A stretch of 64,000 bases of DNA from Holophagales bacterium (GTDB lineage: Bacteria > Acidobacteriota > Thermoanaerobaculia > UBA5066), in NCBI GenBank assembly GCA_016719485.1, contig JADJZB010000006.1, positions 27,375 to 91,374 of the forward strand, in the 5' to 3' direction. The stretch's first letter is position 1, and every line of letters begins with the position of its first letter. This document shows, in pieces, positions 599 to 19,234 of this stretch. Under the pieces are notes generated by a model that did no database searches, was not told the DNA's origin, and saw nothing but the letters and a program-made list of their open reading frames with translations. Both the position numbers and the translations under genes were made by a program.

Positions 599-1021
599 AT
601 GTCCGCAGAGCGTCCCAAGGTAACTCGGCATCTGGCATCCGTCATTCTCGTCGCTTCCGCACTGATCTCGTCCGTCCGACCGGCTGCCGCTAGCCCACAA
701 GTGCCGGCCTCCGCTGCGGCCGAGAGCCGAACCGTGATGAAGGTCGCAGTCACCCCGAAGGACCACCTCGACAGGGCCGTCGAGTATCGAAAGAAGGCCG
801 CCGCCTACCGCGAAGAGGCGAACGTGCATCGCGAGATGATCCTGGCCCTCAAGAAGCGACTGCCGCCCGATACCCGGCCAGGAAACTACGAGCCTCCCGA
901 GCTGGAGAAGCTGCGGAGCCACTGCAACGGCTACATCAAGGACGCAGAGGCACTGGCGGCGAAGGCGGAGAAGCTGGCCGAGTACCACGAAATGCGTGCG
1001 GCCGAGCTGAGCGGCCAGTGA
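599..1021 (+). CDS. hypothetical secreted alpha-helical protein (tandem paralog 1)
   Basis: ORF with N-terminal hydrophobic signal-like segment (HLASVILVASALISSVRPAAAS); shares EYRKKAAAYREEA and HCNGYIKDAEALAAKAEKLAEYHEM-type motifs with the next ORF; no family recognised by eye. Confidence 0.45.
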   Translation: MSAERPKVTRHLASVILVASALISSVRPAAASPQVPASAAAESRTVMKVAVTPKDHLDRAVEYRKKAAAYREEANVHREMILALKKRLPPDTRPGNYEPPELEKLRSHCNGYIKDAEALAAKAEKLAEYHEMRAAELSGQ

Positions 1022-1110
1022 GCCTGTCCAAGTGCGGGTGCGCCGCGTCTGGGCCCGAGGTGCCGACTCCGCTTCGCCTCCCGACATCCCGCCCATGGAA
1101 AGGAGCTGCC

Positions 1111-1515
1111 ATGCTCAACCACGCTGTCCACAAGATCCAGAGCCTCGCCTTTGCCGCCCTGCTCGCAGCGCCACTCACTCTTCTGCCGCTCGTTGCGGAC
1201 GCGCAACAGGAGGGAGGGGCTTACCCGATGTTCGCCGACGAAATCGCGAGGCTCCCGGAGGTTCATCTCGCAAGAGCCGAGGAATACGAAAGGAAGGCGG
1301 CGTCGTACCGCAAGGAAGCCGCCAAACAGCGAAAGCTGCTCGGGGATTCCATCACCGGGAACAGAGAACCGGAGCGGGCGGACACCGATCCGATGATTCT
1401 GGAGATGAGGCGACACTACGAAGCGTATATAGAGAAGGTGGAGGCCGTCGCGCTCGAGGCGGAGCGGTTCTCCACCTTCCATCGGAAGCAGTGGGAAACA
1501 CTGCGGGGAAAGTAG
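1111..1515 (+). CDS. hypothetical secreted alpha-helical protein (tandem paralog 2)
   Basis: ATG at 1111 preceded by aaaggag RBS; signal-like AFAALLAAPLTLLPLVADA; paralogous to 599..1021 (EYERKAASYRKEA / HYEAYIEKVEAVALEAERFSTFH). Confidence 0.5.
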   Translation: MLNHAVHKIQSLAFAALLAAPLTLLPLVADAQQEGGAYPMFADEIARLPEVHLARAEEYERKAASYRKEAAKQRKLLGDSITGNREPERADTDPMILEMRRHYEAYIEKVEAVALEAERFSTFHRKQWETLRGK

Positions 1516-2172: not shown

Positions 2173-2325
2173 GTCTCAATGTTGGGGACCGGACCTTAGA
2201 ATTCGATGAGAGAGAAGGCATCTCACCCTCTAATGCTGCTCTAAGGTATGGGTCCTATCTTTCCGCCCATACACGGCTGCGGTGCGAGACGCTCGCTCAG
2301 CGGCCGATCGACAGGAGACATCGAC

Positions 2326-2739
2326 ATGCGTAAGGCTCTCTCCGTTCTCGCGGCTCTTGCTCTCGCGCTCTCGGCCGGCGTGGCCTCCGCCCACGACGGG
2401 CACGCCCATGGGAAGGAAGCGATCCTCGGTACTGTCGCGCAGGTCCACGGTGACCACCTCGAGGTGGCGGACCCCGACGGCAAGACGGTCTCCGTCACGC
2501 TCACGAGCGCGACGACCTACCTCAGGGGAGACTCCGAGGCGAAGAAGGCCGACCTGAAGCCCGGTGTGCGCGTCGCCGTGGAGACGGCCGATGGCAAGTC
2601 GGGGCTCGAGGCCAGGATCATCCGGATCGGCGCCGAGGAGAAGGCTGTCTGGACCTGCCCGATGCATCCCGAGGTGAAGAGCGCCGGCCCCGGGAAGTGC
2701 CCGAAGTGCGGCATGTTCCTGGAGAAGAAGAAGGCGTGA
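2326..2739 (+). CDS. periplasmic copper/heavy-metal-binding protein with C-terminal Cys-rich metal-binding domain
   Basis: RBS acaggaga then ATG 2326; signal peptide MRKALSVLAALALALSAGVASA; His-rich HDGHAHGKE; C-terminal TCPMHPEV...PGKCPKCGM resembles the heavy-metal-binding domain seen on CusB/P1B-ATPase termini. Confidence 0.65.
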   Translation: MRKALSVLAALALALSAGVASAHDGHAHGKEAILGTVAQVHGDHLEVADPDGKTVSVTLTSATTYLRGDSEAKKADLKPGVRVAVETADGKSGLEARIIRIGAEEKAVWTCPMHPEVKSAGPGKCPKCGMFLEKKKA

Positions 2740-2767
2740 GGGCCGGTTCGGCCGGAGGGGGTTCGAC

Positions 2768-3385
2768 GTGACGCGCACAGGCCGGGTCCTCCTCGTAGCG
2801 GGAGCCGTCGTCGCCGTCGGCTGCGGGTACGCCCTCGCCGCGGCCGTCCGCCGGGGGTTCAGCGCTCGCGAGGAGCCGACGAAGGCCGAGGAGGTCGTGG
2901 CACGGACCTTCCGGGGGTGGGCGACACCGGAGGCGGCGCGCCGTGTGCCGAACCCCGTCCCCACAGGCCCCGAGGTCCTCGCCCGGGCGCGGGCACACTT
3001 CGCCGACCATTGCGCGAGCTGCCACGGGAACGACGGGAGCGGGCAGACGCCAATGGGCCGCCGCCTCTACCCGCGGGCGCCCGACATGCGTTCCGGCGAG
3101 ACCCAGCTCCTCACCGACGGCGAGCTCTTCTCCATCATCAGGAATGGAATCCGCCTTACCGGCATGCCCGCGTGGGGCAATGGCACGCCGCCGGAAGATG
3201 TCGGCACGTGGGAGCTCGTCCACTTCATCCGCCACCTTCCGAAGCTCACGCCGGCCGAGCTCGCGGAGATGGAGTCCCTCAACCCGAAGAGCCCGGCCGA
3301 GTACGAGAAGGCGAGGCAGATCGAGGCGTTCCTTTCCGGCTCCGGTTCGTCCGACGCGTCCCCGCGAGAACGGAGCGCGCATTGA
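2768..3385 (+). CDS. mono-haem c-type cytochrome
   Basis: CASCHG (CxxCH) haem-binding motif, N-terminal membrane anchor/signal, GTG start 28 nt after previous stop. Confidence 0.7.
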   Translation: MTRTGRVLLVAGAVVAVGCGYALAAAVRRGFSAREEPTKAEEVVARTFRGWATPEAARRVPNPVPTGPEVLARARAHFADHCASCHGNDGSGQTPMGRRLYPRAPDMRSGETQLLTDGELFSIIRNGIRLTGMPAWGNGTPPEDVGTWELVHFIRHLPKLTPAELAEMESLNPKSPAEYEKARQIEAFLSGSGSSDASPRERSAH

Positions 3386-3440
3386 AGCGCGAAGTGCAGC
3401 CTCGTGATGTCGTCCGGCTCGGGCAAGGGATGTAGGGCCG

Positions 3441-3779
3441 ATGCCCATCGTCGAGCTCGTCGCCTTCGACGGCTGCCCGAACCGCGACAGGGCTCGCGCG
3501 AACCTCCGGGCGGCCCTTGCCGAAGCCGGCCTCCCGTCCGTTTGGCACGAGCTCGACGCGAGCGGACCGAACGTTCCCGACCGCGCCCGGAGCTGGGGGT
3601 CTCCGACGATTCTGGTGGACGGCGTCGACGTCTCCGGGGCATCCGCGCCACCGGGCGGCCGCGCGTCCTGTCGCCTGTACGGTTCCGCGGGTGATCACGG
3701 AGCGCCTTCCGTGGCCGTGATCGTCGCAGCGCTTCGGTCCGGATCGGCTCGTCCGGGTGACAGCGGAGCGTCATCGTGA
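3441..3779 (+). CDS. thioredoxin/glutaredoxin-like fold protein (single-Cys GCP motif)
   Basis: MPIVELVAFDGCPNRD...SPTILVDG pattern fits a thioredoxin-fold beta-alpha-beta core; stop overlaps next start (GTGA). Confidence 0.4.
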   Translation: MPIVELVAFDGCPNRDRARANLRAALAEAGLPSVWHELDASGPNVPDRARSWGSPTILVDGVDVSGASAPPGGRASCRLYGSAGDHGAPSVAVIVAALRSGSARPGDSGASS

Positions 3780-4138
3780 CCCCTCCAGCGGCCCGTGCTC
3801 TGAGCAGAACGAGCCTCGTCGCGGCGCTCGTCTCGGCAATCGGCGCCTCCCTCTGCTGTATCGGTCCGCCCGCTGCAGGCATGCTCGGCCTCGCCGGGGC
3901 CGGCTCCTTCGCCCTCTTCCACGAGTACCGGCCGTACCTCGCCATCGGCACGATCGTCCTGCTCTGGGCGTCAGTCGGGCTTACCTACAGGACGAGTTCC
4001 GCGGCCTGCTGCGCGACCGGGACCGATTCGAGGCCATGGAATCCAGACCCGCGCGACCGGCGATGGCGGCGTCTGCTCTGGATCGTCGTCGCCCTCACGC
4101 TTGCCTTCCTGACGATCCCCTGGTGGTTCAGCCCCTAG
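3776..4138 (+). CDS. MerT-like heavy-metal (mercuric-ion type) transport membrane protein
   Basis: Cys-Cys pair in first predicted TM (GASLCCIGP) and HEYRPYLAIGTIVLLWASVGLTYR segment resemble MerT (ASACCLGP / LEPYRPIFIG...); translationally coupled to upstream ORF. Confidence 0.55.
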   Translation: MTPPAARALSRTSLVAALVSAIGASLCCIGPPAAGMLGLAGAGSFALFHEYRPYLAIGTIVLLWASVGLTYRTSSAACCATGTDSRPWNPDPRDRRWRRLLWIVVALTLAFLTIPWWFSP

Positions 4139-4244: not shown

Positions 4245-5149
4245 ATGCGGTGTCTCAAGTCCATTCTCGGTGCAGCGGCTCTCGTCAGCGCCCTCGTCAC
4301 GTTTCCCGCCACGGCCCAGATGGGCGGCGGTGGGGCGAACGGCGGGCCCGGTGACGGCATGACGAACGGGACAGAGGATCTGGTCATTCCTGCGGGTGTT
4401 CGTGGAGAGGGCCGGTTCAGCTCCTTCTTCGTCACGGATCTCTGGATCAAGGCGACCGGGACCGGAACGGCAACGCTCTACTTCCACGCGGCGGACTCGA
4501 CGTCGACCGCCCCAGCCGCCACGGCGACGGTGAACCTCACCCAGCCGATTACGTACCTGCCCGACGTCCTTCAGGCCAACTTCGGTCTTGCTGCGGGCTT
4601 CGGGGCGATCCGCGTAGCGGCGAGCATCCCGATCTCGGCGACCGTGCGCGTCTACAACCAGACCGGGGCGGGTGCCTATGGCCTGGCGTTCATGGGAATG
4701 CCGAGCCGGATGGGAATGACCTCAATGCCCATGGGCGGCTCTTACGGCATGGACGAATACGCGATGTACATGCTCGGGCTCCTTCCGCAGCCCGGTAACC
4801 GCGTGAACGTAAACGTCGTTGCACGGCCTCGACGGGCGCTACCGGCGTCGTCGAGATCGTCGACGCCGACGGATCGACTCCGACGGGCACGGGCGCCAAG
4901 AGCCTTCCATTCACCCTCGCGGGGTACTCTTCGCACCAGTTCAACGACGTCCTTCTGAACGTCCATTCGAAGTTCCCGACCGGTGACGCCGGCCTCCAGA
5001 TCCGCGTGCGGATGAACCAGGGCGGAACCGGAATGGTGATGGCCTACGCCGTCGTGAACGACAACACGACGAATGACGGCTATGTCGTCATGGGCAGCAT
5101 GATGAACGGCGGCCGTGGCATGGGCGGCGGGATGATGGGCGGGCAGTAG
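4245..5149 (+). pseudogene. secreted Met-rich (MGM/MxM repeat) protein, reading frame interrupted near 4815-4830
   Basis: aaggagg RBS, ATG 4245, signal peptide MRCLKSILGAAALVSALVTFPATA; after ...GNRVNVNVV the annotated frame becomes Arg/Ser junk while the -1 frame continues as TASTGATGVVEIVDADGS...MMNGGRGMGGGMMGGQ to stop at 5147-5149. Confidence 0.5.
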
Positions 5150-5204
5150 CCCGGCGATCGGGCGTCCGAAGCCCCTGCCGTTTCGACGAGACATAGGCAG
5201 CGAT

Positions 5205-5236
5205 GAGGGCCTCCCTTCAAGGGAGGCATTTCTCGA
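5205..5236. terminator. bidirectional rho-independent terminator hairpin between convergent genes
   Basis: gcctccc-ttcaa-gggaggc stem-loop followed by T-rich tttctc, located between stop 5149 (+) and stop 5324 (-). Confidence 0.5.
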
Positions 5237-5323
5237 TCTCGTTCGTTACTGCGGCTCCGCAACGCACGGCGGCAATAGCAGCCCTGCATCGAGGCTGAGG
5301 TCCGGCAGGGCGGCTCCTCCCGT

Positions 5324-6259
5324 TCACGGCTCGACGACGACCATCATCGAAAGCCCGGTCGCGCCCGCCGCGCTGTCTCCCACGTGCTGCAGGTTGTGGC
5401 AGTGGAGCATCCACGTTCCTGGGTTGTCCGCTTCGAGGAGGCCGTCGTAGCGCTCCCCGGCGTTGAGCGGCAGCGTGTCCTTCCGGTAGGGCGACGGCAA
5501 CGGGAAGCCGTCCGTCGCCGTGACCGTCCAGCTCATCCCGTGCAAATGCATCGGGTGGACCATGTTTCCGGTGTTCACCATCCGGAAGAGGACCCTCTCG
5601 CCCTTGCGCACGCGGATGTCGGGGACGTTCGGGCCCGTCTTTCCATTGATGAGGAGCGTCCCCGTCATCATGCCCGACGAGGACATCCCGCCCCCCATTC
5701 CCATTCCTCCGCCCATCCCCATGCCGCCGCCCATCGCGCCGGGCATGGAGCCGAGCTCACCGACGACGAGGGAGACCTCGCGGTCCCATTCCTTAGGCGC
5801 GGAAGCCGGCGGCTCGACGACGAGGAGGCCGTAAAGGCCGCGGGCGATCTGAGCAGCGGAGCTGAAGTGAGGGTGGTACCAGTACGTCCCGGGCTCGGGG
5901 GCCGGGAACTCGTACGTGAACCGCGCACCGCGCGCCACGGCCGGTGCGGTGACTCCCGGGACACCGTCCATTCCGTGGGGAACGGGGACCCCGTGCCAGT
6001 GGATCGTCGTCGCCTCGGGGAGCTGGTTCACGAGCGTGACTCTGACGACGTCTCCGGCGGAGACGCGCAGCTCGGGGCCGGGGAGCGTCTGGTTGTACGT
6101 CCAGGCGACGACCTTCTGCCCGGGCGAGATCTCCCAGGTCGAAGCGGCGGCGGTGAGGGTGAACTCGCGCACCGCGCCGAGGGCGGGGGAGGCGGCGGTC
6201 GCGGCGAGAGCCCCGAGCAGGGGGAGCGCCGCGGTCAGGCGGAGTCGGGCGGTCGTCAT
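5324..6259 (-). CDS. small multicopper oxidase (cupredoxin) with Met/Gly-rich insert
   Basis: ATG 6259 with ggag RBS; signal peptide MTTARLRLTAALPLLGALAATAAS; copper ligand motifs HWHG, HPH, HCHNLQH, MHLHG; insert MGGGMGMGGGMGMGGGM typical of Cu(I)-binding CopA/CueO-like oxidases. Confidence 0.8.
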   Translation of the reverse strand: MTTARLRLTAALPLLGALAATAASPALGAVREFTLTAAASTWEISPGQKVVAWTYNQTLPGPELRVSAGDVVRVTLVNQLPEATTIHWHGVPVPHGMDGVPGVTAPAVARGARFTYEFPAPEPGTYWYHPHFSSAAQIARGLYGLLVVEPPASAPKEWDREVSLVVGELGSMPGAMGGGMGMGGGMGMGGGMSSSGMMTGTLLINGKTGPNVPDIRVRKGERVLFRMVNTGNMVHPMHLHGMSWTVTATDGFPLPSPYRKDTLPLNAGERYDGLLEADNPGTWMLHCHNLQHVGDSAAGATGLSMMVVVEP

Positions 6260-6345
6260 CGGGAGCTCCTTCTTGAGAAGAAGGGCGGCGCGACCTCGGG
6301 GTCGCGCCGCCCGGTGATCGTGGGCAGGGGCGGCTTCGCCGCGGG

Positions 6346-7041
6346 CTACTGATCGAGGGCGACCGTCCAGAGGAGGCGGCCGGTGAGGTCGACGGCGACG
6401 AGGCTCCGCCGCATTCCCTGGAAGCCGGCATCGCCCGGACCCATGTGCCCGGTCGTCGTGCCGCCGGTCGTCGTCGACGTCGGCGTCCCGACGAGGAGGA
6501 CGAGCCGGTCCGAAGCAGCCTCGACGCGCATCGCGACGCCGTCGATGGCGAGCCGCCACGCCTCGGCGCCGGTCGTGGAGCGAAGCGCGACGAGCGCGCC
6601 CGTTCGGGGTGCAGTCCCGGTCGTGCCGTACCCGTGTGGTTCACCGGTGGAGACGACGAGGAGGTCGGCGGCGAGCGTCAGGTCCCTGATGGCGTCCGTC
6701 GACCTCCAGGACCAGGCGTTGGTGCCGTTCGGGCCGATGGCGAGGAGCTCGTCGGCGATCGCGGACGTGCCGGTGCCCGTCAGCTCCCGGGAGACGACGA
6801 ACGTCGTCCCCGCAGGCGAGACGAGGACGCGGCCCATCCCTCCCATGTCGTCGCCCATGCCCCAGCCCATGCCCGAGCCGGAGCCCATCCCGCCGGTCCC
6901 TCGGGGACCCGTCGTCGACCCGCCGTGCCCGCTGCCGTGCCCACCGCTCCCCATGCCTCCGCCCATCATCTGCGCCGCGGCGGCGCCGGACAGGGAGCAG
7001 GCCAGGAACGCGATTGTCGCGATGGTTGCCGTTCGTCTCAT
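6346..7041 (-). CDS. secreted Gly/Met/His-rich protein (putative periplasmic copper-binding)
   Basis: ATG 7041 with gaggtga RBS; signal peptide MRRTATIATIAFLACSLSGAAAA; MMGGGMGSGGHGSGHGG and GMGSGSGMGWGMGDDMGGMG tracts; directly upstream of the multicopper oxidase, same strand. Confidence 0.5.
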   Translation of the reverse strand: MRRTATIATIAFLACSLSGAAAAQMMGGGMGSGGHGSGHGGSTTGPRGTGGMGSGSGMGWGMGDDMGGMGRVLVSPAGTTFVVSRELTGTGTSAIADELLAIGPNGTNAWSWRSTDAIRDLTLAADLLVVSTGEPHGYGTTGTAPRTGALVALRSTTGAEAWRLAIDGVAMRVEAASDRLVLLVGTPTSTTTGGTTTGHMGPGDAGFQGMRRSLVAVDLTGRLLWTVALDQ

Positions 7042-7100
7042 CGATCTCACCTCTTCACGAATTGCCCCGAGCCGAGGCTCGCGGGCTGCTTTCATCAAGC

Positions 7101-7116
7101 GCAACGCCCGTGCCAC
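7101..7116 (-). promoter_or_regulatory. sigma54 (-24/-12) promoter reading toward 6346..7041 and the oxidase gene
   Basis: minus strand reads TGGCACGGGCGTTGCGC = consensus TGGCACG-N4-TTGCW; ~60 nt upstream of ATG 7041. Confidence 0.5.
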
Positions 7117-7251
7117 TTCATGGGCGCTCCTTCCGGCCTCGTTCGGGTCGAAATGCCGCTTTCGGGCTTCGGCGAGGTGCCGGAGAAAGGGGCAAACCGA
7201 CCCTGACCCGATCGGCGGCGCCGACGGCATCTCGCGCGGACCGGCGGGTCC

Positions 7252-7980
7252 TCAATGGCCCTTCGGTCCCATCGGGGTGCTGCCGTGCGAGCCGCCCCCG
7301 TGGCTCTGGGGCATCTTCCCGTCCGGCGCCGCGCCCGGCATCCCGTGCTCGGACCCGGAGGACATGCCCGTACCGCCGTGCATTCCCCAGGAGTGCTCGC
7401 TCATCCCCATCGACCTCATCGGCGTCGATCGCGGCGCCGCCATCGGGCCGAACGTGCAGGCCTCGTCGGCCCGCACGAGGACCGGAGCCGCACCGGCCTT
7501 CGTCGGCCTCACTTCCACCGTCCCCTCGAAAACTGCGAGGAACGAGCGCCCGTCTTTCGCCACCTCCAGCCCGTACCGCGTCCCGCGGACGGCGAGGAGG
7601 GCACCGGGCGCGGCGACCGTCCGCGCTTCGGCCGATCCGTCGGTCAGCGCCTCGAAGAAGGCCTTGAGGCGCCCCCTCTCCACCGTGAGAAGGACGCCCG
7701 GGGCCCCGGCCGCGAGCCGGGCGCGCGTGCTCGAACCGATCTCGAAGCGCGCCTTCCGCTCCGGCACGGAGAGCACCGCCTTTCCCCAGAACCCGGTCCG
7801 GACGAGGTCTCCGGCCGCGGCCACGTCCCCGGCGGCGACCCGCACCTCGGCCGCCTCGTCGCCTCCCGGGGCGCGCAGCACCTTGCTCTTCACCTCGTCG
7901 AAACGGTAGGCCGGCGTCCCGGGCTCGATCGCGGCCAGGATGCCGGCGGCGAGCGCGGCCAGCGGCAGGATGAGCTTCAT
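7252..7980 (-). CDS. periplasmic FecR-domain protein with Met/His-rich C-terminal tail
   Basis: signal peptide MKLILPLAALAAGILAA; FecR-like core DLVRTGFWGKAVLSVPERKARFEIGSSTRARL; tail MRSMGMSEHSWGMHGGTGMSSGSEHGMPG...SHGGGSHG; start overlaps stop of upstream regulator (ATGA). Confidence 0.6.
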   Translation of the reverse strand: MKLILPLAALAAGILAAIEPGTPAYRFDEVKSKVLRAPGGDEAAEVRVAAGDVAAAGDLVRTGFWGKAVLSVPERKARFEIGSSTRARLAAGAPGVLLTVERGRLKAFFEALTDGSAEARTVAAPGALLAVRGTRYGLEVAKDGRSFLAVFEGTVEVRPTKAGAAPVLVRADEACTFGPMAAPRSTPMRSMGMSEHSWGMHGGTGMSSGSEHGMPGAAPDGKMPQSHGGGSHGSTPMGPKGH

Positions 7981-9362
7981 CGTTCCTCTCCTTCGCCTCC
8001 CTCGGCGACCGGGCCTCCCGCGGCCCGCAGCTTCCGGGCGAGCGTCTTCCTCTCGATGCCGAGCAAACGCGCGGCCAGCGTCTGGTTCCCTCCCGCCGAC
8101 GCGAGGACGGAGAGGATGTGGTGCCGCTCGACCTCCTCCAGCGTCGGCGGCGTCGCGGGCAGCGGCTCCCCCCCGATCGGCCTCGACCACGAGGAGGCCG
8201 CCGCGGGGCCGGCGCCCTCCTGGAGCGCGTGCTCGAGGGCTGCGGTGTCGTCGAGCCGCCCGGCGTCGATGAGCGCCCGGCGGACGACGTGGGAGAGCTC
8301 CCGGACGTTTCCCGGCCAGGTATGACCGGCGAGCCTCTCGAGGACGGCGGCCGAGACGGTCGCCACCTCGGGGAGACCGAGCTCTCGCCGCCCGAGGCGC
8401 TCGAAGTGGGTGACGAGCGCCGGCAGGTCGCTCAGCCGCTCTCGGAGCGGCGGGATTCGGATGACGTAGCCGGTAAGCCGGTAGTAGAGGTCCTCCCGGA
8501 AGCGTCCCTCGCCGACCATCCCTTTCACGTCGCGATGCGTCCCCGCCACGACGCGCACGTCGACCGCTTCGCCCGCCTCGGCCCCGACGGGGGTCACGAC
8601 GCGGTCCTCGAGGAACCTCAGGAGCTTGACCTGGAACGCGGCGGACACCTCGCCGATCTCGTCGAGGAAGAGCGTCCCTCCCGCAGCCTGCGACAGCGCG
8701 CCGCGGCGATCCCGCGAGGCGTCGGTGAACGCGCCGCGCCGGTGGCCGAAGAGCTCGCTCTCGAGGAGCGTGTCGGGGATCGCCCCGCAATGGACGGGGA
8801 CGAGGGGGCCGGAGCCGCGGCCGCTGAAGCGGTGGAGAGCGCGGGCGACGAGCTCCTTCCCCGTCCCCGTCTCGCCGAGGACCAGCACGGGCACTCGGAG
8901 GCGCGCGACCCGCGCGACCGCCTTGTAGACCTCGACCACCGCCGGGTGCGACCCGACGATCATGCTCTCCGGGCCGTCCTCGGCGGGCGCGTGACCGGCG
9001 GGCCGCGCGGCGAGGGCGGCCGACACGCGGTCGAGGAGGACCGAGACGTCGAACGGCTTGGCGAGGTAGTCGAAGGCGCCCGTCTCCTCCGCGGCGGCGG
9101 CCGTCTCCACCGAGCCGCGCGCCGTCATCAGGATCACCGGAGGCGGCGCCGGCCGCGCCTGGACCTCGCGAAGCACCGACAGGCCGTCGCCCCCGGGCAT
9201 GTAGATGTCGCAGAGAATCACGTCCGGGCGGGCCGTCTCGAGCTCCCTCCGCGCGTCGCGCGCTCCGCGGGCGCGCGCCACCTCGAACCCGCTCGCCTCG
9301 AGGGTCAGGGCCACCATCTCCCGGATGGCGTCGTCGTCGTCGATGACGAGGGCACGCGGCAT
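7977..9362 (-). CDS. sigma54-dependent response regulator (NtrC family: receiver + AAA+ + HTH)
   Basis: receiver VIDDDDAIREM...ILCDIYMPGGDG; Walker A GETGTGKE, GAFTDA motif, ESELFGH, C-terminal HTH; 461 aa. Confidence 0.85.
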   Translation of the reverse strand: MPRALVIDDDDAIREMVALTLEASGFEVARARGARDARRELETARPDVILCDIYMPGGDGLSVLREVQARPAPPPVILMTARGSVETAAAAEETGAFDYLAKPFDVSVLLDRVSAALAARPAGHAPAEDGPESMIVGSHPAVVEVYKAVARVARLRVPVLVLGETGTGKELVARALHRFSGRGSGPLVPVHCGAIPDTLLESELFGHRRGAFTDASRDRRGALSQAAGGTLFLDEIGEVSAAFQVKLLRFLEDRVVTPVGAEAGEAVDVRVVAGTHRDVKGMVGEGRFREDLYYRLTGYVIRIPPLRERLSDLPALVTHFERLGRRELGLPEVATVSAAVLERLAGHTWPGNVRELSHVVRRALIDAGRLDDTAALEHALQEGAGPAAASSWSRPIGGEPLPATPPTLEEVERHHILSVLASAGGNQTLAARLLGIERKTLARKLRAAGGPVAEGGEGEER

Positions 9363-9382
9363 CTACGTCCTCCTTCGGGGCT

Positions 9383-11196
9383 CTACGCCCCCGCCCGCCG
9401 CGGGAAGCGTGACGCGGAAGAGGCTCCCCCCGAGCCGGGAGCCTCGACGTCGATGCGGCCCCCGTGCCACCTCACGATCTCGGCCACGAGGGCGAGGCCG
9501 AGACCGAGCCCCGGGACGGTCGCCGCGGAGCCCCCGCGGGCGAATCGCCGGAAGATCTCCTCTCGCTCGCCGGGCGGGATTCCCGGCCCCCGGTCGCGGA
9601 CCGTGAGGCAGACCGATTCGCCGCCGGCCGGGCCCACCGCCACGTCGACCGGCTCGCCGGGCGCGAACTTCAGGGCGTTGCCGACGAGGTTGTCGACGAC
9701 GCGGACGAGGAGCGCCGCATCGCCCTGTACGGCGAGCCCGGGCTCGCCCGAGAACCGGATCTCCCGCTCCGCCCCCCGAGGCAAGGAGCGCCGTTCGCTC
9801 CTGGACGAGCTCCGGGAGGTCGACGAGCGAGGAAGACCCTTCGGAAGTCCCTCAGCTTGATCCTCTCGAGGTCCAGGAGCGTCTCCACCATCTCCGCGAG
9901 CCGCGCGCTCTCCCGCGCGACCATCCCGGCGACCGACCGGCGGCGCTCCTCGCTCAGGTCGAACCCGGAGAGGAGCTGCGCGAGCCCCCGCACCGACGTC
10001 AGCGGCGTCTTGAGCTCGTGCGCCAGGACGCGGCGCGCTTCCGCGTCGTCCTTTCGCTCGCTCTCGAGAGTGGCGGCGAGCGCTTCGAGCTCGACGATGC
10101 GCCGGACCGCGACCGCGGCCCGGCGGCGGTCCGCGAGGAGGCGCCACAGCTCGGGGCCCGCCGTCGCGGCGAGGCCGCCGAACGCCGTCGCGAGGAGCGG
10201 CAGCTCCCGCCCGGCCCAGAGGAGCAACACCATCCCGGCCGGAACCGCGAGCAGGGGGACGGCGGCCGCCGCGGGAGCCAGACGAGGCGCGACCCGCCGT
10301 CGCAGAGCCGTCGCACCACCCGTCAGGAGACCGGCGAGTCCCCCGGCAACGAACGGAGGGAGCCGTTCGTACAGGTCTCCCGTCAGGAGCGACTCGGTCG
10401 CCGCCGCCTGCACGAGGACGCCCGGATCGGGCGTTCCGCGCTCCGATAGAGGCGACACGACGCGGTCTCCGACCCCTGCCGCGACCGAGCCGACGAAGCA
10501 GACCCGGCCCCGGAGCGCGCCCTCCGGCAGGCTCCCGCTCAGGACGTCCGCGGCGCTCCAGGTCGGCACCTCGTCCGCGGAACGGAAGCCGGGCCGGATC
10601 GGTGCCCCGACCGGCAAGGGGATCTCCGGCCGCAGGAGCCGGGCCGCCGCGAAAGGCATCGCGCCGAGGGAGAGCCCGTCGAGCTGCCGGGTCGCGAGGA
10701 AGCCGCGAACGACGCCGTCGCGATCGACGGCGAAGCTGACGTGCGCCACCTCTGAGGCCGCGCGCAGGCCGGAAGCGGGGAGAATCCATCGCTTTGTCCC
10801 GTCCGGCGCGGCGGCGAGGACCGACGGTCTCGCCGCGAGCGCGGTAGCGAGGGCCTCGTCGCCCGGGCGTGTCTCCGCGAGGAGGAGGTCGATCGCCACG
10901 GCGGCGGCCCCTGCCGCCCCGATCCGGTCCACGAGGGCGGCCAGGCGCTCCCGCTCCCAAGGCCACGGCCCGACAGCGCCGATCGCCTCCTCGTCGACGA
11001 CGACCGCCGCGACGGATATCGCGGCCGCCCTCGGCCGGGTCCGCAGGAGCGCGTCCCGAACCAGCAGCTCGGCGGAATCGACCCAGCCCGCAGCGGCAAC
11101 GAGCGTCACGAGGAACGCAGCCGCCAGCGGCGGGCCGAGACCTTCAGCCGCCCGAATCCGGGTCGCCTTCACCTCGGGGAGAGTACGTCTGCGCAC
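9383..11196 (-). pseudogene. CHASE2-domain sensor histidine kinase, frame disrupted between HisKA and HATPase regions (~9760-9850)
   Basis: ORF 9670..11196 has TM + CHASE2-like region and H-box VLAHELKTPLTSVRGLAQLL; the HATPase region (VVDNLVGNALKFAPGEP...GLGLGLALV) lies in a different frame (ORF 9383..10966); a third frame gives HK-like LVDLPELVQERTALL between them, implying two indels near homopolymers. Confidence 0.65.
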
Positions 11197-11324
11197 ATTA
11201 GAACCGCCTTAGAGGTACGGGCTCCTCGCGCGGTTCGTGCAGGCGACTGAGCACCTCCGGCGAGGCGCGGTCGAGGCCCGATCCCCCCGCTCGGGTTCGT
11301 CCCTCCCTGCTTCTCCCATCGATC

Positions 11325-13628
11325 TCACGCCTCCACCATCCTCTTCCGGTCGCGGAAGGCGACCCCGCAGACGACGAGGAAGACGACCTCGACGAGGGCG
11401 ACGACGATCATCCACTTCACGATGGGCGAGTCGCCCATGCCGTAGGAATGCATACCCGCGTTCAGGACGTAGTTCACGCCGAGGTACGTCATCAGAATCG
11501 TCTGGAAGGCGAGGATGCTGATTGCCGCCGCGCCGAACGTCCCGATCACCTTGTCGACCTTCAGGTGGAGGATCGCCATGTAGGCGAGGAAGGCGACGAG
11601 CGACCAGACCTCCTTCGGGTCCCAGCCCCAGTAGCGGCCCCACGACGAGGCGGCCCAGACGGAGCCGGTCAGGATCCCCGCGAGGAGAAAGATCGACCCG
11701 ACGTGCATGTACCAGTAGAGGAGCTCGTAGAGCTTCTCGACGAGCGCGCCGCGCCCCCTGCCGAACGCGGCGAAGCCGATCTGCATGTGTGCGACGACGA
11801 CGCCGAGGGCGAGGACGGCGTAGCCGACCATGATGATTGGGACGTGGATCGCGAGCCACGGCGTCCCCGCGAGAACCGGAGCGATCGGATGGATGAAGCG
11901 GTCCATCGGGAGGAGGTCGGTGAGCGCCATCGTGAGCGCGGACATCGCGGCGGCGTTCAGGACCACGGTCCGGTTCCGCATCAGGAGGTAGGCGATCACG
12001 GCGAAGAGGCCGACGCCCCAGCCGAGGAAGAGGAGCGATTCGTACATGTTCGCCGCGGGGATCCGCTCTCCCGCGGCCCAGCGCATCCCGATCCCCCACG
12101 TCATCGCGCCGAAGCCGAGGACGAGGAGGCCGAACGAGGCCCAGTCGAGGGCCTTGCTCGCCTTCCCCGACGCCGCGATCGAGACGACGAGCGAGGCGAG
12201 GAGGACGAGCCAGGCGAGGCGCGAGGGGTTGACCCGGTTGTAGAGGATCTCCCCCTCCACCTTTTCCTTCGTCGGCCAGCCCGGAAGGCGCGGCCCGTTC
12301 GCGAGGGCAAGGAGCGCCGGCGTCGAGACCTCGAGCGGGACGTTCCAGCGGGCCTTCGGGTCGCCCGGGGAAGGGATCGGCCGGACGACGTCCCGCTGGA
12401 GGACGGCATAGAGAGCGTTGAGGCGTTCCTCGAGCTTCTCGGCGTCCTTGAGGACACCGAGACGCGGCTGGTCGTGCTGCGCGGCTTCACCGGCCGACTC
12501 GATGAGCCGCATCACCGTCGGGTTCGAGACGAGCTGGTGGAAGGATGCCTGCCTCGCCGCCGGGTCGAGGCCCGCCGCGGCGGCGAGTTCCTTGCTGACC
12601 TTCACGGCCGGTGCCGCTGACGCGCTTTTCGGGTCGAGGAGCCACCCGATGAACGTCGCCGCCGGGTCCTGGCCGTTCCAGGAGCGGGAGCCCGTCACGT
12701 TCCAGACCGTCTCTCGCGCGAGCGTGTCGAGCGGCATCACGCGTCCGTCGTGCTGCACCGGCAAGCGCTTCAGCGCCTCGACCTCTGCCGGCGTCTGCGC
12801 GCTCGCCGTGCCGGCCAGCCCCGCGAGGGCGAGGACGGCGCCGAGCGCCTTCCCCATCGTCGGAAGGGACATCCCGGCCTGCGCGACCTTCGCCTCGAGC
12901 TCGCTCCGGCTCTTCTCGCGCTCGCGAGCCTGCGAGACGCGCGTCAGGAGGACGAGGATCATCCCGAGGACCAGCGTCGCGTAGCCGGCGAAGACGACGA
13001 GCTGGCCCGGGTCCTTCGAGACTGAGAGCACAGTCGCCTCGCGCCCGCCCTGTTGCTGGTAGCTCGACTGGAAGAGTGACCAGCCGCGGTGATGGAGCGG
13101 GGTGTTCATGAAGATCCGCGTCGGAAAGCTCTTTCCAGTGTCGAGGTCGGTGACGACGACCTGGCTCGCGAAGCCCGAGGGACGCTTGGTGCCCTGGTAG
13201 GTCTCGAGGACGAAGTCGTCGAGCTTCACCGAAAAGGGGAGGTCGTGCTTCGCGAGGACCGTCCCCTTCTCGTCGACGTGCTCGACCGTCGAAGACGCCT
13301 GCCCTTCCCAGAGCCCGAGCTGCCCCTCCGTCTTCCCGAAGTAGGTCAGCGCCGCGCCGACGAAGATGAGGAGAAGAGAAGCGTGCGTCGTGACGAAGCC
13401 GATCCGCTGCTTCCCCCACGGGAAGTGGGTCGCGATCGAGCAGGCGACGTTGACCGCGAAGAGCCCCTGGAGCCCCAGGAACCACCACGAGTAGTAGACG
13501 AGCCGTCCCGCGGTCGCCGCATCCGTGCGGGACTCGAGGATCGTCCCGGCCGAGAGGCCGAGGAGGAGTACCACGAGGAGGACGACGGCGAGCTTGAGGG
13601 ATGCAAGGGTGCCGACGAGCTTGTTCAA
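11325..13628 (-). CDS. cytochrome c biogenesis system II fusion protein CcsBA (ResB-like + CcsA/ResC-like)
   Basis: N-terminal ResB-like membrane/periplasmic region; C-terminal CcsA WWD motif WGRYWGWDPKEVWSLVAFLAYMAILH; 767 aa. Confidence 0.8.
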   Translation of the reverse strand: MNKLVGTLASLKLAVVLLVVLLLGLSAGTILESRTDAATAGRLVYYSWWFLGLQGLFAVNVACSIATHFPWGKQRIGFVTTHASLLLIFVGAALTYFGKTEGQLGLWEGQASSTVEHVDEKGTVLAKHDLPFSVKLDDFVLETYQGTKRPSGFASQVVVTDLDTGKSFPTRIFMNTPLHHRGWSLFQSSYQQQGGREATVLSVSKDPGQLVVFAGYATLVLGMILVLLTRVSQAREREKSRSELEAKVAQAGMSLPTMGKALGAVLALAGLAGTASAQTPAEVEALKRLPVQHDGRVMPLDTLARETVWNVTGSRSWNGQDPAATFIGWLLDPKSASAAPAVKVSKELAAAAGLDPAARQASFHQLVSNPTVMRLIESAGEAAQHDQPRLGVLKDAEKLEERLNALYAVLQRDVVRPIPSPGDPKARWNVPLEVSTPALLALANGPRLPGWPTKEKVEGEILYNRVNPSRLAWLVLLASLVVSIAASGKASKALDWASFGLLVLGFGAMTWGIGMRWAAGERIPAANMYESLLFLGWGVGLFAVIAYLLMRNRTVVLNAAAMSALTMALTDLLPMDRFIHPIAPVLAGTPWLAIHVPIIMVGYAVLALGVVVAHMQIGFAAFGRGRGALVEKLYELLYWYMHVGSIFLLAGILTGSVWAASSWGRYWGWDPKEVWSLVAFLAYMAILHLKVDKVIGTFGAAAISILAFQTILMTYLGVNYVLNAGMHSYGMGDSPIVKWMIVVALVEVVFLVVCGVAFRDRKRMVEA

Positions 13629-13836: not shown

Positions 13837-19234
<5,398 letters not shown>

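Follow-up and report, generated by a model that had tools for sequence, protein, structure and literature searches.

A 64,000-nucleotide stretch of DNA from a Holophagales bacterium (Acidobacteriota; NCBI GenBank assembly GCA_016719485.1, contig JADJZB010000006.1, positions 27,375 to 91,374), referred to below as the window, carries a three-gene cassette coding for a CHASE2 sensor kinase, a sigma54-dependent response regulator, and a small secreted FecR-fold protein, and it is this last product, the focal protein, that concerns us here. The focal protein ends in a disordered tail whose methionine (Met) content follows that of the neighboring genes from locus to locus, and its gene is followed by a conserved sigma54 promoter that precedes a gene for a second secreted protein with a tract of similar composition. 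The focal protein probably helps the membrane kinase to switch on the neighboring copper-detoxifying genes. More specifically, and with a conviction that falls a little short of even, we propose that it is a periplasmic co-sensor in the path from CHASE2 kinase to sigma54 regulator, and that a Cu(I)-binding tail drives expression of the sigma54 targets; that the cassette senses copper is plausible but unproven. The cassette and the parts of the focal protein are as follows, with positions counted within the window.

9383..11196, minus strand: CHASE2-HisKA-HATPase_c sensor kinase, split over three frames (Pfam on two open reading frame [ORF] pieces)

7977..9362, minus strand: NtrC-type sigma54-dependent response regulator with REC, AAA+ sigma54 activator, and HTH_8 domains (Pfam; NCBIfam ntrC/AtoC/ZraR-like)

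7252..7980, minus strand: focal gene, coding for a stand-alone secreted FecR-fold protein of 242 aa plus stop (translation, Pfam, AlphaFold2 [AF2], Foldseek, and >287 homologs)

7921..7980, minus strand: signal-peptide-like N terminus, residues 1 to 20 (hydrophobicity; predicted local distance difference test [pLDDT] score <50)

7384..7920, minus strand: all-beta FecR-fold core, residues 21 to 199 (pLDDT >90, alignment, and structural matches)

7255..7383, minus strand: disordered tail rich in glycine (Gly), Met, and histidine (His), residues 200 to 242, MHGGTGMSSGSEHGMPGAAPDGKMPQSHGGGSHGSTPMGPKGH (pLDDT <50; composition)

The focal ORF translates exactly as quoted in an earlier note on this DNA, and the secreted-looking FecR-fold protein described there is what we find. 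Its N terminus, MKLILPLAALAAGILAAIEPG, has a mean Kyte-Doolittle value of 2.45 over residues 3 to 17 and contains no Cys; this is the sole hydrophobic segment of the protein, the best later 19-residue window averaging 0.77, and judged by hydrophobicity it is consistent with a Sec signal peptide. The AF2 model, computed from a 30-sequence alignment, is all-beta with pLDDT >90 for about residues 21 to 200 and drops to pLDDT <50 from about residue 201 to the C terminus. Foldseek searches of the Protein Data Bank with this model give significant matches only to FecR-domain structures, namely 4m0h and 4m0n (the BDI_1681 anti-sigma factor) and 6ovk (the C-terminal signaling domain of PupR), with E ∼5e-6, probability 1.0, template modeling (TM) scores of 0.43 to 0.52, and root mean square deviations of 2.6 to 3.4 Å over ∼130 columns, at identities of 13 to 15%. 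By its model, then, the focal protein shares the FecR fold. The profile search that the earlier note had suggested is less clear-cut, as PF04773 (FecR) matches residues 78 to 156 with 22.8 bits (E = 1.3e-4), just below the gathering score of 24; a precomputed PF04773 match is present in many orthologs. Three segments are invariant in the 30-sequence alignment (YRFDEVK, AVRGTRYG, and P..PM..GMSE.SWG), the last of them also within the fold. NCBIfam yields only a weak, sub-threshold match to the Leptospira adhesin Lsa19. There is no Pfam match to a LysM domain, the core starting straight after the signal peptide, and no Pfam or NCBIfam match to the ZraP/CpxP/Spy family, whose members are helical (LTXXQ type), the model being all-beta.

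The three genes are closely joined. The focal ATG at 7980 overlaps the regulator TGA (ATGA) and AAGGAG lies a few bases upstream, in agreement with the translational coupling to the sigma54 regulator proposed earlier, and the identical 4-nt overlap is found in four related loci (L003, L068, L069, and L070). The FecR-like gene is third in the cassette, after kinase and regulator, and tblastn searches with the window proteins recover all three jointly at essentially all loci with sufficient flank (∼60 loci), so that the proposed association with a CHASE2 kinase stands as a genetic linkage; kinase-regulator-FecR is the usual order, and the FecR-like gene of one clade is oriented divergently from the other two. 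No second such triad is present in the 64-kb window. A protein search returns >287 homologs of 230 to 270 aa, for which all given organism names are Acidobacteriota (Holophagales, Thermoanaerobaculia, and Geothrix), as are all 63 loci recovered by a scan of one genome per species. Only 68 of 1.84 billion cluster representatives match in a HMMER search with E <1e-10, and on this sequence evidence the focal family is therefore a narrow subfamily within the large FecR-domain superfamily. The periplasmic CHASE2 region of the kinase contains almost no Met or His. Compared by blastn with intact 614-aa orthologs in L005 to L009, the window kinase has two 1-nt insertions, near 9839 and near 9770, the latter in a G-run; assembly indels are the likeliest cause of the frameshifts here and in the 4245..5149 gene described below.

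There are 8 Met and 6 His among the last 60 residues of the focal protein (residues 183 to 242; binomial p = 4e-9) and 5 Met and 5 His among the 43 strictly disordered ones (residues 200 to 242; p = 7e-7), relative to a background of 1.6% for each residue in nine neighboring proteins. The Met positions of the tail are kept at 0.68 in relatives of 65 to 98% identity, a level similar to that of Gly and Pro and above the 0.25 of Ser; within the disordered residues 200 to 242 the figure for Met is 76 to 79%. Clusters of Met and His within flexible sequence predicted to be periplasmic are typical of Cu(I)/Ag(I)-binding motifs, of which CusF, PcoC/CopC, CueO, and the PcoA/CopA inserts are examples. 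Like the segments of CusF, PcoC, and CueO, the focal tail combines Met with His in a Gly-rich flexible sequence, and a multicopper oxidase with an insert of this type is encoded two genes away; unlike them, it is carried by a FecR fold of the signaling type and not by an enzyme, chaperone, or pump, and metal binding is a prediction. The most probable ligand of the focal tail is Cu(I), or Ag(I), which thioether and imidazole groups would coordinate. A low-complexity tail follows P..PM..GMSE.SWG in every subfamily member, with 0 to 10 Met across the family. An origin of the focal tail as a DNA tandem-repeat artifact is ruled out, as Tandem Repeats Finder locates repeats in the insert of the oxidase and in the tract of the half-propeller protein, both described below, and none in the tail. 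A short His-containing C terminus (...KGH, ...GGH, ...RHGG, or ...PMHH) is present in most subfamily members, Met-rich or Met-poor, and corresponds to 7255..7266 in the window.

Tail composition varies together with the genes around the cassette. If a locus Met score is defined as the Met-densest 40-residue window in any neighboring ORF, higher scores go with tails that contain more Met (Spearman 0.75, n = 51), and a Met-rich neighbor is present at 25 of 31 loci whose tail has at least 4 Met but at only 1 of 15 whose tail has 2 or fewer (Fisher p = 2e-6), in statistics that ignore the kinship of the loci. The same difference is seen within genomes. Six metagenome-assembled genomes (MAGs) have two triads (L009/L059, L005/L044, L006/L028, L010/L014, L007/L016, and L008/L019), in which the copy in the copper-gene island has 3 to 7 Met and 3 to 5 His and the other copy has 0 to 2 Met, and a genome-wide compositional bias is therefore excluded. 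Met-poor copies, such as P0043/L003 and P0062/L001, are in loci without copper genes or Met-rich neighbors. In a neighbor-joining tree of the cores the Met-rich clade of the window is nested among Met-poor clades, and parsimony gives about 10 tail-state and 9 neighbor-state changes, mostly coincident. This covariation supports, at the level of sequence, an adaptation of the focal copy by its tail to a ligand with affinity for Met, Cu(I) for example, and the tail looks like a locus-specific specificity element. We note also that some MAGs carry several triad copies with different tail compositions (L056, L060, and L062, the three copies of JAMPYE01, and L050/L066, two more distant copies in JAJPHC01), so that diversification of the cassette within single genomes has taken place repeatedly.

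The predicted output of the cassette lies immediately beyond the focal gene and consists of the following features.

7101..7115, minus strand: sigma54 (−24/−12) promoter TGGCACGGGCGTTGC, with the consensus TGGCAC-N5-TTGC

6346..7041, minus strand: secreted half-propeller protein, the predicted direct target (AF2; Foldseek)

6283..6312, minus strand: GC-rich 13-bp hairpin with a T-rich run after it, separating the half-propeller and oxidase genes

5324..6259, minus strand: two-domain multicopper oxidase with a GGGMGMGGGMGMGGGM insert (Pfam Cu-oxidase_3/_2; NCBIfam copper_res_A/CueO)

The exact sequence TGGCAC-N5-TTGC occurs once in the 64 kb, where 0.06 occurrences are expected by chance, and is situated 137 nt past the focal stop and ∼60 nt ahead of the ATG of the next gene (7041); transcription is predicted to begin near 7089. 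Only five exact matches are present in 1 Mb of related loci, all at this same offset (L005 to L009), and L010 keeps a site with one mismatch despite an intergenic region that has otherwise diverged. When two or fewer mismatches are allowed and the GG and GC dinucleotides retained, 20 of 68 loci have a site within 300 nt past the FecR-like stop, compared with 4.4 expected. At up to three mismatches, no other sigma54 site precedes the 4245 gene or those for the HMBD protein, cytochrome c, kinase, ResB/CcsA, ATPase, or oxidase, except for a poorly placed one at 583, and only the half-propeller/oxidase unit can therefore be assigned to the regulator. A sigma70 promoter scan of 5200 to 11400 gave no match. 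The block GAAAGCGGCATTTCGACCCGAACGAGG, at approximately 7137..7165 (minus strand) and about 25 to 50 nt upstream of the sigma54 promoter, is near-invariant in L005 to L009 and largely kept in L010, and is a candidate binding site for the regulator or for integration host factor (IHF).

The 6346..7041 protein joins a disordered N-terminal Gly/Met/His tract (residues 24 to 70) to a confidently modeled four-blade half-propeller similar to PQQ/BamB proteins (AF2, Foldseek). Members of this family directly follow the FecR-like gene in ∼22 loci (iterated hidden Markov model search), and the conserved unit is therefore one of four genes. They always have an N-terminal Gly-x-Gly tract whose variable residue differs by locus (GMG, GPG, GNG, or GTG) and matches the flavor of the adjacent FecR-like tail. 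Tracts with more Met tend to accompany tails with more Met (Spearman 0.76, n = 19), and at Met-poor loci a GPG-type tail is paired with a GPG-type tract (L003, L014, and L067). That the disordered segments of a sensor accessory and of its predicted target covary in composition was an unexpected finding. The multicopper oxidase gene is downstream of the half-propeller gene, and its insert is a GGGMGM repeat encoded by an 18-nt DNA repeat. The hairpin between the two genes could act as a terminator or as an attenuator within the presumed sigma54 transcription unit, and co-transcription of half-propeller and oxidase genes by read-through is likely but not certain.

Met-rich and copper-type genes lie around the cassette, including one on the other side of the oxidase.

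4245..5149, plus strand: secreted Met-rich protein, frameshifted near 4950; the intact L009 ortholog is ∼300 aa and ends ...GGRGMGGGMMGGQ

The gene that the earlier note had placed at 4245..5149 is frameshifted in the window. The view in that note that three neighboring secreted proteins share the Met/His tract style of the focal tail agrees with our scan: 40-aa stretches containing 6 or more Met fall in four adjacent genes at 4.2 to 8.0 kb and otherwise, across the 64 kb, in one dubious ORF at 36 kb. Homologs of the 4245 gene co-occur with Met-rich-tail triads, and a multicopper oxidase together with a 4245-type protein is found in the window clade and in three other clades. The copper-type genes of the window code for the multicopper oxidase, an HMBD protein, a MerT-like protein, a P1B ATPase, and a resistance-nodulation-division (RND) pump, and cytochrome c and cytochrome-biogenesis genes adjoin. 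Among other loci with Met-rich tails, those of Geothrix type code for secreted proteins of ∼150 aa with ∼20% Met (30 to 33 Met; e.g., L070:8858-9319 and L068:13068-13502), beside which are encoded an outer-membrane barrel resembling Phenol_MetA_deg and DUF5666 proteins of 470 to 500 aa that are Met-rich, and in L070 an HMBD-CusB is part of a CusCBA pump. Similar Met-rich ORFs of ∼150 aa are present in L021, L023, L024, L029, L030, L032, L034, and L045. Neither the 4245-gene protein nor the Geothrix-type 150-aa protein (L070) matches a Pfam family.

We suggest that these parts could work together as follows. The FecR core would be the generic part of the focal protein and would dock on the CHASE2 domain of the kinase, by analogy with the periplasmic domains of FecR and PupR. 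The CHASE2 domain itself appears to have no obvious metal ligands, and capture of Cu(I), or Ag(I), would fall to the exchangeable, locus-specific disordered tail, which is Met/His-rich in this copy. Metal loading would alter the action of the accessory protein on the kinase, and the phosphorylated regulator would fire the sigma54 promoter just downstream, with the secreted Gly/Met-tract half-propeller protein as its product and, by read-through, the Met-rich multicopper oxidase. A broader version seems doubtful to us, though it merits mention: that FecR-fold protein and CHASE2 domain form a modular periplasmic sensor in which the exchangeable tail sets the cue (here Cu(I)), and that the tail co-evolves with the half-propeller tract (GMG with GMG, GPG with GPG). 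Such co-evolution, if true, would imply either recognition between two disordered segments or feedback between sensor and product through a shared ligand.

Several observations weigh against the main proposal. The operon is identical in homologs whose tails are Gly/Pro-rich and poor in Met (P0043/L003, with 1 Met and 0 His, and P0062/L001), and the tail is therefore neither required nor defining for the cassette; the earlier note had named orthologs of this kind as grounds for refutation, and its claim fails for the tail as a required part of the cassette, the covariation of Met supporting the narrower form of a locus-adapted tail. The His positions of the tail are poorly kept, at 0.37 overall in the relatives used above and at only 10% for H212 and H227, and the SEHG/SHGGGSHG histidines are restricted to the closest relatives. 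Several loci with Met-rich tails (L020, L025, L042, L060, and L064) have no Met-rich neighbor within ∼8 kb, and the disregard of kinship in the tail-locus statistics counts in the same direction. Geothrix-type loci show no recognizable sigma54 site after the FecR-like gene, and control of the oxidase by the sigma54 promoter of the window is uncertain because a strong hairpin separates it from the half-propeller gene. The kinase frameshift, if real, would make the window copy inactive and the system a decaying one.

The same parts can be arranged so that the focal protein is not the primary sensor. We regard it as unlikely, at a level only slightly below that of the broader modular version, that the focal protein is a feedback or buffering accessory of the ZraP or CpxP kind, which would restrain or modulate the CHASE2 kinase and be relieved when metal or the half-propeller Gly/Met tract titrates the tail, the signal being sensed elsewhere, by the kinase or as envelope damage. 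ZraPSR is a precedent, as a sigma54 two-component system with a kinase-repressing periplasmic metal-binding accessory (PMC4987338; PMC8836040), and the match between tail and tract extends to the Met-poor GPG loci, for which a shared metal ligand alone is insufficient. The FecR-like gene, however, is in the kinase-regulator operon and not, like zraP, behind the sigma54 promoter, and neither Pfam nor Foldseek finds a relation to ZraP or CpxP in sequence or fold. We give no more credence to the tail as a neutral low-complexity spacer, shaped by drift or local mutation, in a cassette that senses a nonmetal cue such as envelope or cell-surface state, which has been suggested for other modules of CHASE2 and FecR domains, and for which the copper genes are mere island neighbors. 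This would fit the poor conservation of His, the very varied composition of a tail that is low in complexity throughout the subfamily, and the presence of the cassette beside housekeeping genes (between acetate kinase/Pta and leucine-biosynthesis genes in L003 and near mraZ-mur genes in L068). It does not fit the conservation of Met positions at the level of Gly and Pro, the paralog contrast in six genomes, the repeated coincident gains and losses of Met-rich tails and neighbors reconstructed by parsimony, or the sigma54 promoter that links the cassette to an adjoining Met-rich gene and the oxidase gene.

Sensing of oxidants (HOCl or reactive oxygen) by reversible Met oxidation, with no metal bound, is distinctly less probable than either of these. 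Methionine-based sensing is known from HprSR/MsrPQ of Escherichia coli, the tail and its neighbors are likewise Met-rich and periplasmic, and cytochrome c and cytochrome-biogenesis genes are adjacent; but the surroundings of the triads showed no genes for methionine sulfoxide reductase, the neighbors that recur are of copper type (multicopper oxidase, HMBD-CusB/RND, and P1B ATPase), and His joins Met in the copper-island clade. A classical FecR-type anti-sigma regulator, which similarity to FecR domains in sequence and fold would suggest, can be dismissed with near certainty: at 242 aa the focal protein has no cytoplasmic anti-sigma domain and no transmembrane helix beyond the signal peptide, which rules out this role, and all loci have the CHASE2 kinase and sigma54 regulator in place of a nearby extracytoplasmic function (ECF) sigma factor or TonB-dependent receptor.

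The linkage of FecR-domain proteins to CHASE2 sensors, which the earlier note had proposed to look for, is found here and has been reported previously (PMC5192318; PMC9239204). In Burkholderia and Pseudomonas, the "BiofilmReg" operon codes for a response regulator, a LysM-FecR protein (COG4254), a CHASE2 kinase, and a DUF4136 protein, and the cues of CHASE2 are stated there as not known (PMC5192318). A Campylobacterota cluster combines a CHASE2 adenylate cyclase with a FecR-domain protein and a tetratricopeptide repeat (TPR) protein (PMC9239204), and in Sinorhizobium the CHASE2-cyclase/Clr pathway has a FecR-domain protein as a target (PMC5498481). The role of the FecR-domain protein is inferred in all three reports, its association with CHASE2 coming from gene linkage. 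As in the BiofilmReg and Campylobacterota systems, the cassette of the window places a secreted FecR-domain protein in one operon with a CHASE2 sensor, and function is read from linkage only. It differs from these in having an NtrC-type sigma54 regulator rather than one of OmpR/CreB type or a cyclase, a disordered tail that tracks neighboring genes, and a defined sigma54 target promoter after the gene, as well as in the absence of LysM from the focal protein, the order kinase-regulator-FecR, and its Acidobacteriota lineage.

Two other comparisons are instructive. The beta-rich fold is shared with the periplasmic domains of FecR and PupR, which act by periplasmic protein-protein contacts; unlike those proteins, the focal protein lacks both an anti-sigma N-terminal domain and a transmembrane anchor, and it is not partnered by an ECF sigma factor or a TonB-dependent transducer. 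By analogy, the closest functional parallel is ZraPSR (PMC4987338), which also comprises a membrane kinase, a sigma54 regulator, a small periplasmic accessory (metal binding in ZraP and predicted to be so here), and an adjacent sigma54 promoter; in contrast, the folds of the accessories are unrelated, ZraP is itself a sigma54 target, ZraS lacks CHASE2, and the metal of ZraPSR is Zn. A literature search for CHASE2 together with copper gave no relevant paper. While the FecR-CHASE2 linkage is already known, the unique sigma54 promoter, the locus-tracking tail, the copper-island paralog contrast, and the conserved tail Met are new here.

The extracytoplasmic sensor domain CHASE2 is widespread, and the cassette is a compact case of its use, with Cu(I)/Ag(I) as candidate ligand, a tail of 43 to 60 residues as candidate capture element, Met-poor paralogs in the same genomes, and a clean sigma54 promoter. 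Should Cu(I) prove to be the cue, CHASE2 receptors would have their first defined cue, a generic FecR-CHASE2 unit would gain its specificity through a disordered appendage, and Acidobacteria would have a new type of copper regulator distinct from CusRS, CopRS, and CueR. If the copper link is false, annotation of these poorly studied genomes still gains a well-delimited module of four genes.

There are also genes of interest at greater distance from the cassette. Two paralogous secreted proteins of 140 to 165 aa (599..1021 and 1018..1515), with no family assignment, are encoded upstream of a run of small metal-related genes on the plus strand (2248..4138), which codes for an HMBD and DUF5666 protein, a cytochrome c, a thioredoxin-like 112-aa ORF, and the MerT-like transporter, the last two overlapping by 4 nt. 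The P1B-type ATPase gene (13837..16164, minus strand) codes for an N-terminal P-II (PF00543)-like domain that replaces the usual HMA metal-binding domain.

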